IMG/VR virus record: IMGVR_UViG_3300045988_005187
Span: 1 to 5,467 of that record
Source of the DNA: a virus
Reading direction: 5' to 3' (one strand)
Length of the DNA: 5,467 nt
The translations under genes and the position numbers were made by a program. Positions within the stretch are counted from its first letter, which is position 1. Every line of letters starts with the position of its first letter. The notes under the pieces were generated by a model. The model was not told where the DNA came from, ran no database searches, and saw only the letters and a list, made by a program, of their open reading frames with translations. Of the stretch, positions 1-5,467 are shown piece by piece.

Positions 1-42
1 GTTTACAACCTGGAAGAGGAAAAAAAGCATGAAAATCTTTAA
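1..42 (+). CDS. Duplicated 3' end of the VP5-like gene (same sequence as 5369..5410). It is partial only because the circle was linearised here.
   Basis: Frame 1 reads VYNLEEEKKHENL then a stop, identical to the C-terminus of the 5165..5410 product. Confidence 0.85.
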   Translation, partial: VYNLEEEKKHENL

Positions 43-99
43 ACCCTACGAGGACGAAAAACCGGAAAGCAGACCGAACGACGCCGGGAACATCATGGA
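1..99. repeat. Terminal direct repeat, copy 1. It is identical to 5369..5467 and is the assembly overlap of a circular genome with a 5368-nt unit.
   Basis: Base-by-base reading shows gtttacaacctggaagaggaaaaaaagcatgaaaatc...catcatgga at 1..99 and again at 5369..5467. Reading frames continue across the junction. Confidence 0.95.
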
Positions 100-526
100 G
101 CCGCAGTATAAGGAACGCTACGACGAAAACGGCAAAGCATACCTGGAAAAAGTGGGCGAAGTAAACACTTATGAAAAAATCCAGAGCTACAGGGACGAAT
201 GCGACGTCATGAGCATTCTGAGCAGATACGCAGCTGGCGACCAGACCGCACTCGCACGACCTGGCTACTACATCGACACCAGCAAACTCCCGCAAACGTA
301 CACAGAGTGGCTAAACCTGATGAACGAAAAACGAGATCAGTTCGACGCGCTGCCGCTGGAAGTCAAAAAGGCATTTGACATGAGCTTTGAAACCTGGGCA
401 GCAAACGCAGGCGAAGAAGAGTGGCTCAAAAAAATGGGCATTATGACGAAAAATGATGCTGCAGCACAACAGCCTGATACAGCAGTATCACCAAAGGAGG
501 AAGAAAAGCATGAACCGAAACAGTGA
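29..526 (+). CDS. VP3: Internal scaffolding protein VP3 (Gokushovirinae/Chlamydia-phage scaffold family), 165 aa
   Basis: SD GAGGA at 16..20 lies 8 nt before the ATG. The product is acidic with the conserved-looking core ...MSILSRYAAGDQTAL...YIDTSKLPQTYTEWLN...FDALPLEVKKAF, typical of gokushovirus VP3. It sits immediately upstream of the capsid gene and overlaps it. The ATG overlaps the stop of the upstream VP5 gene on the circle. Confidence 0.8.
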   Translation: MKIFKPYEDEKPESRPNDAGNIMEPQYKERYDENGKAYLEKVGEVNTYEKIQSYRDECDVMSILSRYAAGDQTALARPGYYIDTSKLPQTYTEWLNLMNEKRDQFDALPLEVKKAFDMSFETWAANAGEEEWLKKMGIMTKNDAAAQQPDTAVSPKEEEKHEPKQ

Positions 527-2150
527 ACAGCATTACAGTCAGGTTCCACACGCAGAAATCAGGCGCAGCAGCTTTAAGAGAGACTTCGGCCTGTTGACCA
601 CGATGAACGAAGGCGACTTGGTACCGATCTACTGCGACGAAGTACTTCCGGCAGATACATTCAAGATCAATGTTAACGGCCTGATCAGAATGGCGACTCC
701 GCTTTATCCGGTCATGGATAACGCGTATGTCGACTTCTACTTTTTCTTCGTGCCGGCACGCCTGCTCTGGAAGCACTTCGAAAACCTCATGGGCCAGAAC
801 GACAGCACCTTCTGGGCAGAAACGGTAGACTATACAACGCCGCAGACCAAAGCACCAACAGGTGGCTGGAAGGTAGGCACCATCGCGGACTACTTCGGGA
901 TCCCGACAGGCGTAGCAAACCTGAGTGTCAACAGCATGCCACTCCGCGCATATGCGAAGATCTGGAACGAATGGTTTAGGGACGAAAACCTGCAACAGCC
1001 GGTGACCATGAGCCAGGACGACGCAACCACGCAAGGCAGCAACACCGGCACGGCGCTGACCGACGCAGAAGCCGGAGGGCTGCCACTCAAAGTGGCAAAA
1101 TACAAAGACTACTTTACAAGCTGCCTCCCATCGCCACAAAAAGGCGAAGCAATAACCATCAGCCTGACAGGTAACGCACCTGTAGAACTCTTTACGGACA
1201 ACAACTTAACAAATCAGCTCACAGAAAGAATTTACCTGGGAAACGGCAGCGCGTCAACAGCAAACAAGCAGAATACTTATATCGGCAGATCATTCTCAAA
1301 CGACAAAGCGGTAACTGTAAGCGGCACATCAACAGCAACAGGAACAACCATCAATAACGGTGTACTGGGAGCAAACTTGCAAGACATCGCAGCAACAACC
1401 ATCAACGAATTGCGGAACGCGATCGCAGTACAGCACATTCTGGAACGAGACGCAAGGACCGGCACCCGGTACAAGGAAATCTTGCAGGGAGCATGGGGCG
1501 TAACCAGTCCGGATGCACGACTTGACCGAAGCGAGTATATCGGCGGGTACAGAATGCCGATCAACATCAATCAGGTGGTGCAGACGTCGAGCACCGACAG
1601 CACGAGCCCGCAGGGCAACACCGGCGCATATAGCTTGACGACCCTAAGTCGCAAAATGTGCACCTACTCGGCAACAGAACATGGCTACGTAATCGGACTG
1701 GCAGCAATCAGGGTAGATCACAGCTATCAGCAAGGTCTGAGCCGGATGTGGACACGCAGCACACGGTTTAGCTACTACGACCCGATGCTGGCCAACCTTG
1801 GCGAACAAGCGGTGCTGAATCAGGAAATCTATGCACAAGGCAACGCCAAAGACACGGAGGTCTTTGGCTATCAGGAAGCCTGGGCAGACTACAGGTATCG
1901 CACCAACATGATCACAAGCGAGATGCGCAGCACATACGCTCAGACACTCGACGCGTGGCACTACGGCGACAAATATACGAGCCTGCCGACGCTATCAAAC
2001 AACTGGATCAAAGAGGGCACGGAAAACATCGACCGCACGCTGGCAGTTCAAAGCAGCAACACGCACCAGTTTATTGCGAACCTCTACTTCGACCAGACAT
2101 GGACAAGACCCATGCCGATCTACAGCGTGCCTGGACTGGAAACGATCTAA
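510..2150 (+). CDS. VP1: Major capsid protein VP1 (Microviridae F-protein family), 546 aa from the ATG at 510
   Basis: It lies within the 453..2150 ORF. SD AAGGAGG at 494..500 lies 9 nt before ATG 510, whereas ATG 453 has no SD. N-terminus MNRNSEQHYSQVPHAEIRRSSFKRDFGLLTTMNEGDLVPIYCDEVLPADTF. Further conserved blocks are YFGIP, MPLRAYAKIWNEWFRDENLQ, CLPSPQKG, TINELRNAIAVQHILERDARTGTRYKEILQGAWGV and SPDARLDRSEYIGG, matching the gokushovirus VP1 pattern as I recall it. Confidence 0.95.
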   Translation: MNRNSEQHYSQVPHAEIRRSSFKRDFGLLTTMNEGDLVPIYCDEVLPADTFKINVNGLIRMATPLYPVMDNAYVDFYFFFVPARLLWKHFENLMGQNDSTFWAETVDYTTPQTKAPTGGWKVGTIADYFGIPTGVANLSVNSMPLRAYAKIWNEWFRDENLQQPVTMSQDDATTQGSNTGTALTDAEAGGLPLKVAKYKDYFTSCLPSPQKGEAITISLTGNAPVELFTDNNLTNQLTERIYLGNGSASTANKQNTYIGRSFSNDKAVTVSGTSTATGTTINNGVLGANLQDIAATTINELRNAIAVQHILERDARTGTRYKEILQGAWGVTSPDARLDRSEYIGGYRMPININQVVQTSSTDSTSPQGNTGAYSLTTLSRKMCTYSATEHGYVIGLAAIRVDHSYQQGLSRMWTRSTRFSYYDPMLANLGEQAVLNQEIYAQGNAKDTEVFGYQEAWADYRYRTNMITSEMRSTYAQTLDAWHYGDKYTSLPTLSNNWIKEGTENIDRTLAVQSSNTHQFIANLYFDQTWTRPMPIYSVPGLETI

Positions 2151-2162
2151 AGAGGTAAGGGC

Positions 2163-3110
2163 ATGGCAGTACTTGAAACACTTGCAGGACTTTTGCCGAT
2201 CATAACCGGAGGTGTGAGCCTCGCTGGACAGCTAGGAAAAACCATAAAAGACCTGACCAGCAGCACAACCAGCAGCGGCAACACAAGCAGCGGCATGGGG
2301 CAGATGGGCATGAACACGAGCTTCGGAAACACCGCAAGCAGCGGAAGCATGACCAGCAACACAACAACCAGCGGAAGCAACTGGCAGCAAGGCAGCATAT
2401 CAGGAATCGCAAGCATACTCAACAGCGCTCTGGGGACACCAACAGGAAACAACGCGACAGGGGCAGCAAACTGGAACGCAGGACAAGCAACCACAGCAAA
2501 CAATTTGCAAACAGGAATGTGGTCACTTGGAAACCTGATGAACCTGGGCAGCAATCTGGCAGCAAACGCAATGAATGCGGCAAGCCAAAGCAGCGCAATG
2601 CGCTATAATAGCGCAGAAGCGCAAAAACAAAGAGACTGGACAGAACGCATGAGCAATACGAGCTACCAACGAGGCGTCGCAGATCTCAAAGCAGCAGGGC
2701 TAAACCCAGTGCTGGCAGCATACAACGGCTACGGAGCAAACACAGGAGGCGGAGCAGAAGCGAGCCTGGGAGCACAAAGCTACAGCCACACACAGGCAAA
2801 CAGCATTCCAGCGGCAAAAATGGCCGAAATGCAAACAATGTACGACTACGGAAACAATACATCACAATTTTTACAACAAGCACAAGCAGCCATCAACGCA
2901 GCGCGGCAAATGGGTGGCCACAATGAAGAAACAGCATTCCGGCAGATCACAAGAGACATCGTAAGCAGCAGCGCAAAAGATGTCAGCGCACTGGCGAAAA
3001 CGGAACAGAGCGCAACAAGCGGAAACACCAGCACGACCGGCCACGGAACAGAAAAAAATTACGCGCTATCCGGAAAAGGGCAGCTGGAATACCAGAGCAA
3101 AAAAAAGTAA
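2163..3110 (+). CDS. VP2: Minor capsid / DNA pilot protein VP2 (H-protein analogue), 315 aa
   Basis: SD GAGGT at 2152..2156. The N-terminus [22 protein letters not shown] is hydrophobic and is followed by a long S/T/N/G/Q low-complexity region. The conserved core [36 protein letters not shown] (about 2613..2717) is characteristic of microvirus VP2. The gene sits directly after VP1. Confidence 0.87.
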
Positions 3111-3141
3111 TTGACAAAAAAGGAAAGAGGGTGTATATAAT
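3111..3141 (+). promoter_or_regulatory. Sigma70-type promoter candidate for the RHH gene, and possibly for rep by read-through
   Basis: A perfect -35 TTGACA lies at 3111..3116. TATATA at 3134..3139 gives a 17-nt spacer, and it overlaps TATAAT at 3136..3141 (19-nt spacer), with TG at 3132..3133. It lies immediately after the VP2 stop and about 40 nt before the RHH start. Confidence 0.6.
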
Positions 3142-3179
3142 GAGTGTACCAATCGCACACTTAAAGTAGGAGGACAACA

Positions 3180-3374
3180 ATGAAAAACGTGACTAAAAGA
3201 ATCAACATCAATTTAACCGACCGTGAACAAACGGCACTTGAAGCACTCCAACACGAAATGACAACCCGAGGGTGGAACATGAACCAAAGTGACATCATCA
3301 GGGAAGCAATCGTATCATACTGTCACAAGATGACAGGTTACACGTTCGCAAATGAATGGCAAATGAAACAATAA
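3180..3374 (+). CDS. Small ribbon-helix-helix (CopG/Arc/MetJ-like) DNA-binding protein, 64 aa. Putative transcriptional regulator.
   Basis: Strong SD AGGAGG at 3168..3173 lies 6 nt before the ATG. The sequence fits the RHH pattern: beta strand KRININL, helix 1 TDREQTALEALQHEM, loop, helix 2 NQSDIIREAIVSY. It aligns by eye to pMV158 CopG (KKRLTITLSESVLENLEKMAREMGLSKSAMISVALENY). The fold call is pattern-based only. Confidence 0.6.
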   Translation: MKNVTKRININLTDREQTALEALQHEMTTRGWNMNQSDIIREAIVSYCHKMTGYTFANEWQMKQ

Positions 3375-3410
3375 TGCATATAATTGACAGTACGGTCAAG
3401 AAAATTGTGT

Positions 3411-3452
3411 CAGTGGGCCCATATACATCAAGAAGGGTATATGGGCCCACTG
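3411..3452. repeat. Perfect inverted repeat (hairpin/cruciform) with 16-bp arms and a 10-nt loop
   Basis: CAGTGGGCCCATATAC at 3411..3426 is the exact reverse complement of GTATATGGGCCCACTG at 3437..3452. The loop is ATCAAGAAGG. Each arm contains the palindrome GGGCCC. It lies between the RHH stop (3374) and the rep SD/ATG (3459/3474). No T-tract follows on the + strand. Confidence 0.9.
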
Positions 3453-3473
3453 AGGTAAGAGGGTGAATAATCC

Positions 3474-4577
3474 ATGGGATGCACACAACCGCTAATACGA
3501 TTTAAAGATGGACGAATAACAAGCCTCAAAAAATACTTGTACTGCGACGGACTGGCAAAGCGGGACGGCATCATAATCGACGGTATCAGCGTAACCAGCA
3601 ACGAAACAGAACTTAAAAATGCAATAAGGCTAGAAGAAGCAACACTTATACCGTGCGGGAGCTGCACCGGCTGCAAACTGGCAGCATCAAGCAGCTGGGC
3701 GAACAGAATGGAAATGGAACTGCCATACCACGAACAAGCATGGTTTTTGACACTGACCTACAACGAAGAAACAGTACCGTACAGAATGACATGGGACAAC
3801 CTGACAGGAGAAGTGCTCACAGAAAACTTGAGCCTATGCTATCAGGACATGCAAAAATTCTGGAAGAGGCTGAGAAGATACTTAGAATACCACAACAAAG
3901 CAACAGAAAATTTGATGTACTTCCAAGCCGGTGAATACGGAGGAAAAACACACAGACCACACTATCACGCAATAGTGTACGGACTAAACATCCAAAAAAA
4001 CGAGCTAAAGACATACAAGCAAAAAAACGGCTACACATACTATAACTGCGAATGGCTGGAAAAAATATGGGGTCTTGGGTATGTAGTACTGGCACCAGCA
4101 GAATGGCGAAACATGGCATACACAGCAAGATATACCACAAAAAAAATATACGGCAAAGAAGGAAAAGAATACTACAGCGAACTAGGAATAGAGCCAGAAC
4201 GCTGCATGATGAGCAAAAACCCAGCCATTGGAATGCAATACTACTTTGAGCACAAAGAAGAAATCTATCCGAAAGACAGCATACAGCTAAAAAGCGGAAG
4301 AGAAGTAAAACCACCAAGATACTTTGATAAGCTCTTTGATCTGGAACACTCAAAGAGCAAACCGCTATCCGAGGCAGAAAGTGAAGATATTGAAAACACA
4401 ATAGAAAAAGCCGAATCCGAAGAGCTGCAAGCCATCAAACGTGAACGGCGAAGAATCGCGAATGACGCACTTTTTGCAAAGCTCAGACAGACCGGCTTGA
4501 CCATGCAAGAATATTATGAACTACAAAACCAGAAAATGCAAGACAAAATGAAAAAATTGATAAGAGAGGAAGTATAA
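3474..4577 (+). CDS. VP4: Replication initiation protein VP4 (HUH rolling-circle endonuclease, phiX174 gene A family), 367 aa
   Basis: SD GAGGG lies at 3459..3463. Motif I is FLTLTY (3744..3761). The HUH motif is HYHAIVY (3960..3980). The two-tyrosine motif III YTARYTTKK (4119..4145) parallels phiX174 A protein YVAKYVNKK. A cysteine cluster PCGSCTGC lies near the N-terminus, as in gokushovirus VP4. Confidence 0.94.
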   Translation: MGCTQPLIRFKDGRITSLKKYLYCDGLAKRDGIIIDGISVTSNETELKNAIRLEEATLIPCGSCTGCKLAASSSWANRMEMELPYHEQAWFLTLTYNEETVPYRMTWDNLTGEVLTENLSLCYQDMQKFWKRLRRYLEYHNKATENLMYFQAGEYGGKTHRPHYHAIVYGLNIQKNELKTYKQKNGYTYYNCEWLEKIWGLGYVVLAPAEWRNMAYTARYTTKKIYGKEGKEYYSELGIEPERCMMSKNPAIGMQYYFEHKEEIYPKDSIQLKSGREVKPPRYFDKLFDLEHSKSKPLSEAESEDIENTIEKAESEELQAIKRERRRIANDALFAKLRQTGLTMQEYYELQNQKMQDKMKKLIREEV

Positions 4578-4656
4578 AGAACGGCTAAATAAGGGCACTA
4601 CATACAGCAAGCGGAAAACAGGCGCGCAGCGCTGAACCTGCTTTATGATTTAAATG

Positions 4657-4691
4657 GACCGGGACGGAGCATAGCTCCGCTCCGGTCTTTT
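4657..4691 (+). terminator. Candidate intrinsic terminator downstream of rep
   Basis: GACCGGGACGGAGC / GCTCCGCTCCGGTC forms 6 bp, then one mismatch and one G-U wobble, then 6 bp, around an ATA loop. TTTT follows at 4688..4691. It lies 80 nt after the rep stop. Confidence 0.5.
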
Positions 4692-4761
4692 AAGGTGCGC
4701 AGGGCTCCGCGCTGCCGATTACAGAAAAAGCTCCCATTATCGGAAAAAACATGAAAATCAG

Positions 4762-4799
4762 CAATGGCACGGAAAACGCCATTGTTTTTTTTTTTTTTT
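4762..4799 (+). terminator. Candidate intrinsic terminator with a 15-nt T-tract
   Basis: CAATGGC (4762..4768) pairs with GCCATTG (4778..4784) around a 9-nt loop. It is followed immediately by T15 (4785..4799). Confidence 0.55.
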
Positions 4800-4807
4800 G
4801 GTAAAAT
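4799..4807 (+). promoter_or_regulatory. Extended -10 promoter candidate (TGnTAAAAT) for the small basic protein / RHH2 / VP5 / VP3 / VP1 gene block
   Basis: TGGTAAAAT lies at 4799..4807, directly after the T15 tract, which may act as an A/T-rich UP-like element. There is no good -35. SD AAAGGAG at 4821..4827 and ATG 4835 follow. Confidence 0.4.
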
Positions 4808-4834
4808 TAGAGAAAAATAGAAAGGAGAAAAAAA

Positions 4835-4954
4835 ATGGCATACCGGAAAACCGTAAAACCGAAAATCGACAAGAAAGTCTTCACCAACACGGCGAAAAAA
4901 ACGAAGAAGATCAACGTCAACCCGAAACCGAGCCGAGGGGGCATCAGACTGTGA
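4835..4954 (+). CDS. Small highly basic DNA-binding/packaging protein (gokushovirus ORF8/VP8, analogue of phiX174 J), 39 aa
   Basis: It is absent from the supplied ORF track because it is too short. SD AAAGGAG at 4821..4827 lies 7 nt before the ATG. I translate it as MAYRKTVKPKIDKKVFTNTAKKTKKINVNPKPSRGGIRL then a stop. The F-x-x-TA ... RGGIRL C-terminus matches the Chlamydia-phage ORF8-type peptide (...LFSRTA...MRGGIRF) as I recall it. Confidence 0.78.
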   Translation: MAYRKTVKPKIDKKVFTNTAKKTKKINVNPKPSRGGIRL

Positions 4955-4986
4955 TTGGACGAGCACGACCAGGCGAAAACAAAGGC

Positions 4987-5175
4987 ATGACAAGTCTAAC
5001 CATCTACCTGACACCGGAGGACTTCGAGGAAATCCAAGACTGGCGGGAAGAATTTGTAACAACCTATAGTGACATTGCACGAAAGTGCATCAGAATCGGC
5101 CTGAAGCACAAAAACGAACTCTTTAAAGCGCTGGACAATGACCAGCAGAAAAGGAAGGAAAAATATGGAGTTTGA
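4987..5175 (+). CDS. Second small ribbon-helix-helix-like protein, 62 aa from ATG 4987. An alternative GTG start at 4951 would give 74 aa.
   Basis: This is the C-terminal part of the 4798..5175 ORF. MTSLTIYLTPEDFEEIQDWREEFVTTYSDIARKCIRIGLKHK fits the RHH pattern: strand LTIYL, helix 1 TPEDFEEIQDWREEF, helix 2 YSDIARKCIRIGL. ATG 4987 has only a weak SD. In-frame GTG 4951 overlaps the TGA of the upstream basic-protein gene (CTGTGA) and has GAGGGGG at 4935..4941, 9 nt upstream. The stop overlaps the VP5 start by 11 nt. Confidence 0.5.
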   Translation: MTSLTIYLTPEDFEEIQDWREEFVTTYSDIARKCIRIGLKHKNELFKALDNDQQKRKEKYGV

Positions 5176-5410
5176 AATTTACGCAATCAAAGACGAGCTG
5201 GCGGGAACCTTCGGGAACCTGATGATCGTGAACGCGAAAGTAGCCCAGAGAACCTTTAAGTGGCTGATGAAAGAGACCGAAAAGGCCGACTGCGACGACA
5301 AGCGCATTTACCTGATGGGTACCTACGACAACGAGACCGGCCAGATCACGCCGATCACACCGAAGCTGGTTTACAACCTGGAAGAGGAAAAAAAGCATGA
5401 AAATCTTTAA
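5165..5410 (+). CDS. VP5: VP5-like small non-structural protein of Gokushovirinae, 81 aa. It runs into the terminal repeat.
   Basis: SD GGAAGGA at 5153..5159 lies 5 nt before ATG 5165. MEFEIYAIKDELAGTFGNLMIVNAKVAQRTFKWL...IYLMGTYDNETGQITPITPKLV resembles Chlamydia-phage ORF5 (MKVFTVFDIKTEIYQQPFF...AIRAF...YILYEIGSYDDSNGTFIPLEVPK) from memory. The stop at 5408..5410 overlaps the VP3 ATG. Confidence 0.7.
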   Translation: MEFEIYAIKDELAGTFGNLMIVNAKVAQRTFKWLMKETEKADCDDKRIYLMGTYDNETGQITPITPKLVYNLEEEKKHENL

Positions 5411-5467
5411 ACCCTACGAGGACGAAAAACCGGAAAGCAGACCGAACGACGCCGGGAACATCATGGA
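5369..5467. repeat. Terminal direct repeat, copy 2 (identical to 1..99)
   Basis: See copy 1. It contains the VP5 3' end and the first 71 nt of VP3 (ATG at 5397). Confidence 0.95.
5397..5467 (+). CDS. VP3: Duplicated 5' fragment of VP3 (same sequence as 29..99), truncated by the window end
   Basis: ATGAAAATCTTTAAACCCTACGAG... is identical to 29 onward. Confidence 0.85.
   Translation, partial: MKIFKPYEDEKPESRPNDAGNIM

Follow-up and report, generated by a model that had tools for sequence, protein, structure and literature searches.

A small gene that probably encodes a ribbon-helix-helix (RHH) DNA-binding protein lies directly upstream of the replication initiator gene in a gokushovirus genome, the 5,467-nucleotide stretch of IMG/VR record IMGVR_UViG_3300045988_005187 (positions 1 to 5,467) that we refer to as the window. 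The gene is an open reading frame (ORF) of 64 amino acids (aa) at 3180-3374, and the initiator (Rep), of the HUH rolling-circle type, is encoded by VP4 at 3474-4577, both on the plus strand. Our reading, to which we assign a probability of roughly 0.5, is that the two genes form an RHH-Rep operon with feedback through GTGTA repeats, that a separate origin hairpin is inverted, and that the complementary strand is packaged. In this scheme, a sigma-70-type promoter at 3111-3139 would transcribe the RHH gene and read through a stem-loop into VP4. The RHH protein would bind, as paired dimers, GTGTA repeats that overlap the -10 element and start site of its own promoter, and would thereby limit both its own synthesis and Rep by negative feedback, with the logic of CopG and RepB. 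The hairpin, with its TCTTGAT loop, would stand outside the regulatory circuit as the site nicked by Rep or as some other strand-specific element of the origin, and the RHH gene would have been inserted between a pre-existing promoter and this hairpin. With the hairpin inverted with respect to the genes, the complement of the mRNAs would be the strand to be nicked, displaced and packaged.

The 64-aa ORF upstream of Rep, to which an earlier note on this DNA had drawn attention, is a genuine gene under purifying selection. Its reading frame is intact in 36 of 36 related genomes, and the ratio of nonsynonymous to synonymous substitution rates (dN/dS) is 0.07-0.25 against the relatives of the window, with a median of 0.38 over all pairs. 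In 35 homologues, it is the sole stop-free frame of the six. The order VP2, ORF, VP4 is kept at all 35 loci fetched via the ORF and at 20 of the 21 further loci fetched via VP4, so that homologues sit upstream of VP4 in 55 of 56 readable genomes. Searching 5.8 billion proteins yielded 42 clusters of homologues; none of them is on a contig longer than 5.9 kb, and none carries a Pfam domain or a protein name. The family is narrow, since an exhaustive profile search of 1.84 billion representatives recovered only 33 clusters at E ≤ 0.001. Four deposited gokushovirus genomes hold the gene unannotated. In an annotated phage collection, VP4 identity of 60-80% is reached by only 5 of the 2700 records with a VP4 match, which indicates that the RHH-bearing genomes constitute a discrete lineage.

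The family signature, M-K-x-Q-x-x-K-R-I-N-I-N-L-T ... S-D-I-I-R-D-A-I-x-x-Y, includes four invariant residues (R7, N9, L12 and T13) and four that are nearly invariant (N11, R41, A43 and I44). The strand K6-R-I-N-I-N-L-T13 alternates polar and hydrophobic residues and the second helix is S/T-capped (S37-D-I-I-R), as expected of RHH proteins; the 64-aa protein displays the full RHH topology of an alternating strand, helix A, a turn and a helix B that starts with S or T. An AlphaFold2 (AF2) model based on the family alignment has an extended N-terminus followed by helices at 14-29 and 36-52, with a mean predicted local distance difference test score of 80.6. When the family profile was aligned with CopG using hhalign (the CopG sequence agreed with PDB entries 1b01 and 2cpg), strand, helix A and helix B fell in register with 31% identity over 39 columns, a similarity below significance (E 3e-4, probability 39%). 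The family matched most commonly is RHH_1 (PF01402), in 29 of 43 and 16 of 34 members, all below threshold with a best E of 1e-4. Other weak sub-threshold matches are to CcdA, 56B_RHH, RHH_3, DUF6290, ORF56, aCcr1, NikR, ParD and TTHA0139.

Several results weigh against an RHH identity. The window protein scores only 12.1 bits against RHH_1, where the cut-off is 20.5 (E 0.21), and no RHH profile match in the family reaches its curated threshold. Neither sequence searches of the PDB, with the single protein and with two profiles, nor a Foldseek search of the monomer model against the PDB and BFVD returned a significant match. The monomer structure search is undiagnostic because the RHH fold is an obligate dimer. 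A natural tandem repeat in the family, P0051, was considered as a single-chain dimer and set aside, as its second repeat is modeled at low confidence, as helical, and with no ribbon. An attempted bridge to annotated RHH proteins by profile search of the 5.8 billion proteins also led nowhere, the top 120 matches all being unannotated family members. Of the RHH assignment in the earlier note, the strand-helix-helix pattern stands, now joined by convergent weak matches, whereas every match in the hidden Markov model profile check is below threshold. We conclude that the 64-aa protein is probably an RHH DNA-binding protein, which would adopt the RHH dimer fold with a beta-ribbon.

The family also varies in form. 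One genome (L035, 4173-4557) encodes two tandem RHH paralogues, P0051 (125 aa) is a fused two-repeat RHH-family protein, and L175 (MG945373) has an extra 61-aa ORF at 3769-3954, between the promoter and the RHH gene.

The RHH gene is preceded by a strong early promoter on the plus strand, with a -35 TTGACA at 3111-3116, a 17-nt spacer and a -10 TATATA at 3134-3139, matching the consensus at 11 of 12 positions. This is the promoter listed in the earlier note, which gave the -10 as TATATA/TATAAT; the alternative TATAAT at 3136-3141 would imply a 19-nt spacer. Our promoter scan demands a T at position 6 of the -10 element, and skipped the 3111 site for that reason alone. The strong AGGAGG Shine-Dalgarno sequence that had likewise been listed is found at 3168-3173 (plus strand), 6 nt 5' of the ATG at 3180, and takes the form AGGAG or AAGGGG in relatives. 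A sigma-70 match of 10-12 out of 12 occurs 67-73 nt upstream of the ORF start codon in 34 of the 36 related genomes. Column conservation of the intergenic stretch between VP2 and the ORF (IG1) is 0.85 and peaks at 0.94 at 3131-3150, and the flanking coding sequence is less conserved (0.64 at the 3' end of VP2, 0.68 in the ORF and 0.71 at the 5' end of VP4).

Within IG1, a candidate operator at 3131-3160 comprises GTGTAT at 3131-3136, which overlaps the -10 element, GTGTAC at 3144-3149 and an inverted copy, GCACAC, at 3155-3160. The direct GTGTA copies are 13 bp apart and the inverted pair is separated by 11 bp, center to center, spanning the predicted start site near 3146. The block GGTGTATA-n-(T/A)ATG-n-GTGTA-nn-AATC-nn-ACAC is invariant over 53 unique sequences, and the operator-like block is present in 42 of 59 RHH-bearing genomes versus 0 of 60 RHH-less genomes. 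A distant RHH-bearing genome (L176) has an analogous inverted repeat, TGTGC-N8-GCACA, between a -10-like element and the Shine-Dalgarno sequence. GTGTAY shows no overall enrichment across the whole genome, and is informative only by its local arrangement and conservation. Read as an RNA hairpin, the IG1 inverted repeat would have a stem of only 5-6 bp, and transcription is predicted to start within its left arm. A tally of the partners of arm variants (A-T 25, G-C 12, G-T 13, A-C 0) is suggestive and confounded by phylogeny.

Since the DNA-reading residues and the promoter-proximal repeats are both conserved, autoregulation of the RHH-Rep operon is the most economical interpretation, and it is plausible that the RHH protein acts on the operon through the candidate GTGTA operator. 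The spacer between the RHH gene and VP4 contains no consensus promoter that is conserved among relatives. Two observations count against this interpretation. The strict block pattern is absent in 17 of the 59 RHH-bearing genomes, and a promoter-like site (GTGACA-18-TATCAT, 10 of 12) lies inside the RHH ORF at 3289-3318. This internal site recurs near +112 as a 9-10 out of 12 match in many relatives. It overlaps the codons of the highly conserved SDIIREAI, so that it may be incidental; alternatively, it may act as a weak internal promoter and give Rep some independent transcription.

The nearest functional parallel is the CopG-RepB pair of the pMV158 plasmid family, in which a small RHH-type gene is likewise found right upstream of, and co-directional with, an HUH initiator gene, behind one strong sigma-70 promoter. 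The promoter repeats described here suggest a like autoregulation. However, the gokushovirus Rep is of the PF23343 type, there is no conserved antisense promoter, the 64-aa protein has a conserved C-terminal tail, and the two genes are separated by the origin-like hairpin, in contrast to pMV158, whose origin is located upstream of the promoter. A small RHH protein also precedes a replication protein in the Sulfolobus plasmid pRN1, where the CopG-like ORF56 is encoded upstream of the replication gene ORF904; that plasmid is archaeal and its replication protein is a different one. The NCBIfam model for ORF56 (NF041793) gave the best family E-value among members, 1e-4 in 4 of 34 members, far below its curated cut-off. 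The cassette resembles CopG/RepB or ORF56/ORF904 in logic and is a member of neither.

The second element of our reading is an origin-like stem-loop on the minus strand at 3405-3453, between the RHH gene and VP4, with a flank TTGTGTCA at 3405-3412, arms at 3410-3426 and 3437-3453 and a 10-nt loop at 3427-3436. The palindrome reported in the earlier note is therefore real, with 100% complementary arms of 17 nt rather than 16. Read on the minus strand, the element is stem-[CCTTCTTGAT]-stem-TGACACAA, and its fold is predicted at -41.5 kcal/mol (z = -6.0 versus shuffles). Over 25 distinct sequences, 96% of the stem cells are paired and compensatory double changes occur in 14 of the 19 pairs, a covariation equaled by 0 of 500 shuffles and which collapses in slid controls. 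Intermediates of the G-U type make up merely 2 of 448 stem cells. Neither the loop (TCAAGA) nor the 5' flank TTGTGTCA varies within the clade of the window.

Essentially the same element occurs in gokushoviruses that lack the RHH gene. In RHH-less L177-L179, whose VP4 proteins share ~33-36% identity with that of the window, it is found between VP2 and VP4, reverse-complemented relative to the genes, in the form CACTCAG-stem-[yTTCTTGATG]-stem-CTGAGTGACACC. On the CTTGAT strand, both groups share stem-[yCTCTTGAT]-stem-(A)GTGACAC. In the cultured phage Chp2, a 14-bp stem with the loop TCTACTTGAT stands upstream of Rep on the coding strand; a version with CTTGTT, in the orientation of Chp2, occurs in SpV4. 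The TCTTGAT core matches the phiX174 origin CAACTTG/ATATTAATAAC, where the initiator cuts CTTG/AT. The loop core is identical to that of the pC194 minimal origin, TTCTTATCTTGATAATAAGG, the core of which is TCTTGAT (PMC7072734). As in origins of the phiX174/pC194 type, the element is just upstream of Rep; unlike in those origins, the core is placed in the loop of a 14-19-bp stem and, in the clade of the window, on the strand complementary to the genes. The hairpin is a probable Rep nick site or other strand-specific origin element. Weighing against this, we found in the literature no experimental proof of a nick position in CTTGAT or of the hairpin as a gokushovirus origin, nor, in the literature searched, any report of nicking shown for a gokushovirus. 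CTTGAT is not enriched overall across the whole genome. A scan of viral contigs with TTGTGTCA-N(12-22)-ATCAAGA was abandoned as unspecific, as it gave mostly chance matches in large contigs.

The presence of the hairpin in RHH-less gokushoviruses, including the basal genomes L222, L213 and L210, indicates that it is older than the RHH gene. L213 and L210 have the hairpin and no RHH gene, and L222 reads TAATTGACA-N17-TATAGT, then directly the hairpin, then VP4. In the window, a second copy of TAATTGACA occurs at 3381-3389 on the plus strand, a direct repeat of 3108-3116, and on this likeness to the basal arrangement we read it as a remnant of the ancestral promoter that once stood directly before the hairpin. 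There is also a second AGGnAAGAGGGTGnATA in the window, at 3453-3469. The duplicated TAATTGACA and AGGnAAGAGGGTGnATA fit insertion of the RHH gene between a pre-existing promoter and the hairpin. Many relatives (L001-L003, L009, L014-L016, L020-L024 and others) carry an extra GC-rich hairpin, GCCGGGGAGACCCGGC, with a T-run, GGTTTTTTT, in the spacer between the RHH gene and VP4; these occupy its first half, after the RHH stop codon and ahead of the origin-like hairpin. The window is without this extra hairpin and T-run, and its spacer is only 99 nt long.

The earlier note had gone further and likened the whole region to the copy-control unit of pMV158: Rep would be controlled by the palindrome and by an antisense RNA, and the phage would persist in a low-copy, plasmid-like carrier state. 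The gene order and promoter agree with such a unit, as does the weak in-register similarity to CopG, and there are two minus-strand promoter-like sites in the window, at 3558..3530 and 3399..3371. These sites are not conserved, however: no minus-strand promoter recurs in any consistent way, 28 of 36 relatives have none, and an Rfam scan of the window gave no match, which leaves the antisense layer without a counterpart here. The palindrome fares no better as a CopG-like control element, since the same stem-loop is found in RHH-less gokushoviruses including Chp2, its orientation tracks the T-rich DNA strand (see below) rather than the mRNA, and G-U intermediates are as rare as given above. VP4 is of the phiX174-A/VP4 type (PF23343 REP_ORF2-G2P, phrog_942) and not RepB (Rep_2), contrary to the suggested likeness to pMV158-family Rep proteins. 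Nor is a carrier state borne out, as no integrase, partition or toxin gene is among the domain and PHROG matches of the ORFs in the genome and the sole long contig with a homologue is an assembly chimera. In that contig (L057, 48 kb, ERZ27281030 k141_41694), the homologue P0105 lies beside bacterial mobile-element genes as if integrated, yet the phage part is short by 92 nt, there is no att duplication, and the contig ends in an Illumina adapter, AGATCGGAAGAGCACACGT. With its near-complete microvirus and bacterial mobile-element genes, the chimera could pass for a prophage. We regard a full copy-control unit as very improbable. What remains plausible of the plasmid analogy is the autoregulated RHH-Rep operon, from the conserved promoter, the co-directional gene order and the operator-like block restricted to RHH genomes.

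The main rival to repression is that the RHH protein is a replication accessory factor, instead of or besides a repressor, in the manner of the relaxosome proteins TraY, NikA and PcfF. Bound next to the hairpin, it would bend the DNA and bring Rep or replication proteins of the host to the origin. In those systems too, an RHH gene is found beside an HUH nuclease and a hairpin or nick site, and the variable tails of the proteins are suited to partner recruitment; the RHH gene of the window adjoins the hairpin, and its family has modular C-terminal tails that are kept within subclades. Partnerships of RHH and HUH proteins are established for relaxosomes (PMC6514445). On the other side, the flank TTGTGTCA and the loop of the hairpin are older than the RHH gene and occur in RHH-less genomes, RHH-specific repeats beside the hairpin were not seen, and the sole DNA block that co-occurs with the gene is the one at the promoter, in contrast to the relaxosome arrangement. 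We consider an accessory role unlikely, if worth keeping in view.

As regards the tails themselves, acidic C-termini (...EEEDLPF, ...DDLPF, ...DELPF) occur in several subclades, namely L001, L002, L014-L016, L020-L023, the second paralogue of L035, and P0060, P0064, P0065 and P0067. In place of an acidic tail, the subclade of the window has a conserved TGYTFANEW(K/Q) tail. The C-terminal tip of the bacterial single-stranded DNA-binding protein (DDDIPF/DDDLPF) docks replication and repair proteins. The EEEDLPF, DDLPF and DELPF tails resemble this tip, a likeness that would suit an accessory role.

A conserved C-terminal tail could also bind a partner if the RHH protein were an immunity or exclusion factor that blocks related incoming phages, or were antitoxin-like and neutralized a partner protein. 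The weak profile matches do extend to RHH proteins of phages (Arc, Mnt) and to antitoxins of the RHH class (ParD, CcdA). Nonetheless, the DNA-reading residues and the promoter block are near-invariant across the clade, the opposite of the diversification expected for immunity specificities. The gene that follows is Rep, and no ORF matches a toxin family. Such a role is improbable, and we retain the autoregulated operon as the preferred interpretation of the cassette.

So, which strand does this phage package? We oriented 119 gokushovirus genomes by their genes and sought stem-loops that have a stem of ≥9 bp and carry CTTGAT in the loop. In 97 of 98 genomes, it is the T-rich strand that bears the CTTGAT loop. 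Where the coding strand is T-rich at four-fold degenerate sites (38 genomes), the loop is on the coding strand, with none flipped, and where the coding strand is A-rich (59 genomes), it is on the non-coding strand. The hairpin is just upstream of Rep, and ~50 nt away from it in 53 of 60 A-type genomes. The composition is mirrored as well: four-fold sites of the window are A.43, C.25, G.25 and T.07, and those of the outgroup L178 are A.08, C.17, G.14 and T.61. A preference for NNT codons has been described for ssDNA (single-stranded DNA) phages and attributed to C>T changes in their single-stranded genomes (PMC3278643).

For the substitution spectrum, singletons at four-fold sites of VP1 were polarized within clusters of closely related genomes, four of A-type and three of T-type. 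In the A-type clusters, G>A changes outnumber C>T (45 versus 8) and C>A outnumber G>T (23 versus 3). The T-type clusters show the converse, with 30 C>T versus 2 G>A and 14 G>T versus 4 C>A. The mirroring has the same direction in every cluster (Fisher p = 2e-13 and 2e-5). These mirrored spectra place the damage signature of ssDNA on the coding strand of canonical genomes, and on its complement in the clade of the window. Taking hairpin, composition and mutation together, we lean slightly toward the view that the clade of the window packages the DNA strand complementary to its genes.

Alternatively, the flip and the A-rich coding strand may be unrelated to packaging, with the skew stemming from mRNA or codon selection or from host effects, and an orientation-independent hairpin inverted once. 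The tree offers this view some purchase, and weighs against reversed packaging, as a crude neighbor-joining tree of VP1 puts the strongly A-rich gut genomes in essentially one clade and the link between flip and skew therefore rests on about two events. Further, moderate A-richness occurs without a flipped hairpin in two genomes: L232, the one exception to the rule above, is A-rich (+0.30) with a canonical hairpin orientation, and phiMH2K (L237, AF306496), a cultured Bdellovibrio phage, is A-rich (+0.31) with no CTTGAT-type hairpin found. The coding strand of phiMH2K is A-rich and G-poor, with four-fold sites of A.45, C.24, G.07 and T.24. Codon selection does not readily predict, however, that transitions and transversions would both be mirrored at four-fold sites in every cluster, and of the 38 T-rich genomes in which a CTTGAT-loop hairpin was detected, none has it flipped. 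Flip and skew also recur together in another lineage, that of Microvirus AZ-2020, which has a flipped hairpin, a skew of +0.79 and a different gene order. Its nearest VP1 neighbors are Chp2, L230 and L232, all of canonical orientation, and phiMH2K, in which no hairpin was detected, making AZ-2020 a probable second, independent flip. An origin of the skew unrelated to packaging is thus a doubtful but serious alternative to packaging of the complementary strand.

AZ-2020 (ON111452) is also the only related item in the Microviridae and gokushovirus literature outside subscription journals, where we found no report of RHH proteins, of negative-sense or reversed polarity, or of an origin stem-loop. 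Its authors described a putative DNA-binding ORF, a transcription regulator by HHpred and ColabFold (Smith et al. 2022, PMC9584320). This ORF of ~68 aa is, like the RHH gene, directly upstream of Rep in a gokushovirus with an A-rich coding strand and a flipped hairpin. It is non-homologous (hhalign probability 0.1%) and lacks the N-terminal KR.N.NLT strand, and the hairpin of AZ-2020 is upstream of the promoter region of the small gene, not between that gene and Rep. The earlier note had stated that the canonical gokushovirus gene set includes no transcription factor, and it knew of no description of such a cassette in Microviridae; the unrelated putative DNA-binding ORF upstream of Rep in AZ-2020 qualifies this. 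Regulators are absent from the accessory genes reported in the largest survey of microviruses (PMC9239249).

Of the 74 A-rich genomes, 59 carry the RHH family, as against 0 of 45 T-rich genomes. The family was acquired after the flip, because basal A-type branches are without the gene. With an inverted origin, rolling-circle forks would meet all transcription head-on, and a repressor of a promoter firing toward the origin would make sense. We speculate that the small DNA-binding genes next to Rep in flipped lineages are adaptations to time or silence a strong promoter that faces the origin.

The remainder of the genome is that of a member of the Gokushovirinae, with VP1-VP5 and the small basic protein, a circular form and a size within ~4.5-6 kb. 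A 99-nt terminal repeat in the 5467 bases gives a unit length of 5368 nt, and every gene is on the plus strand: VP3 at 29-526 (Chlamy_scaf, 6e-33), VP1 at 510-2150 (Phage_F, 4e-166), VP2 at 2163-3110 (pilot-protein PHROGs, phrog_18604), then the RHH gene and VP4 (PF23343 4e-15, phrog_942 1e-96), a 39-aa basic protein at 4835-4954, a 62-aa ORF at 4987-5175 and VP5 at 5165-5410 (Phage_ORF5, 1e-10). The gokushovirus gene products also include a match to phrog_10695. The VP4 translation carries FLTLTY, HYHAIVY and YTARYTTKK, which comprise the HUH and Y-x-x-x-Y motifs. The closest deposited genomes are 75% identical over ~21% of the sequence.

Downstream of VP4, plus-strand hairpins at 4665..4799 are the probable end of the RHH-Rep transcription unit. 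The first, at 4665-4684, is followed by TCTTTT, and the second, with a stem at 4762-4768/4778-4784 (CAATGGC/GCCATTG), by T15 (4785-4799). The second stem and its 15-T run (4762-4799) resemble a strong plus-strand terminator, and right behind the T-run TGgTAAAAT (4799-4807) constitutes an extended -10 that precedes the block of the basic protein, VP5, VP3, VP1 and VP2. As the terminator-like stem and T-run directly precede this extended -10, the genome appears to be organized in two transcription units.

A further small ORF, the 62-aa one at 4987-5175 (possibly from GTG 4951), reads MTSLTIYLTPEDFEEIQDW...SDIARKCIRIGLKHK and is RHH-like. It lies between the basic protein and VP5, aligns in register with the 64-aa ORF family (hhalign probability 45%, E 2e-4) and weakly matches a PHROG annotated as 'Arc-like repressor' (E 0.11). 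Its distribution is patchy, with 3 close clusters, 31-43% homologues in L005, L006, L012 and L025, and a 97% copy in L052. A TTGACA/TATAAT-type promoter so near the consensus, together with the strong AGGAGG, points to a host with expression dependent on sigma-70 and Shine-Dalgarno sequences, for example among the Firmicutes or Proteobacteria rather than the Bacteroidota.

Microviruses rank with the most abundant phages of the gut, and the usual account gives them a positive-sense genome and a fixed, minimal set of genes that contains no regulators. The RHH genes are a new, clade-wide and unannotated family of regulator type that probably forms an operon with Rep, and as such provide a testable handle on how an initiator may be dosed in a 5-kb ssDNA phage. 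The stem-loop with the TCTTGAT loop is a likely gokushovirus origin, and we know of no report that mapped this element experimentally. That hairpin, composition and mutation spectrum are inverted together suggests that reversals of packaging polarity can occur within the Microviridae. If so, a family defined as positive-sense would include negative-sense members, and the orientation and annotation of genomes, strand-specific viromics, and readings of mutation bias and codon usage for ssDNA phages would change. The flipped lineages would then also offer a natural experiment on head-on versus co-directional conflict between replication and transcription.

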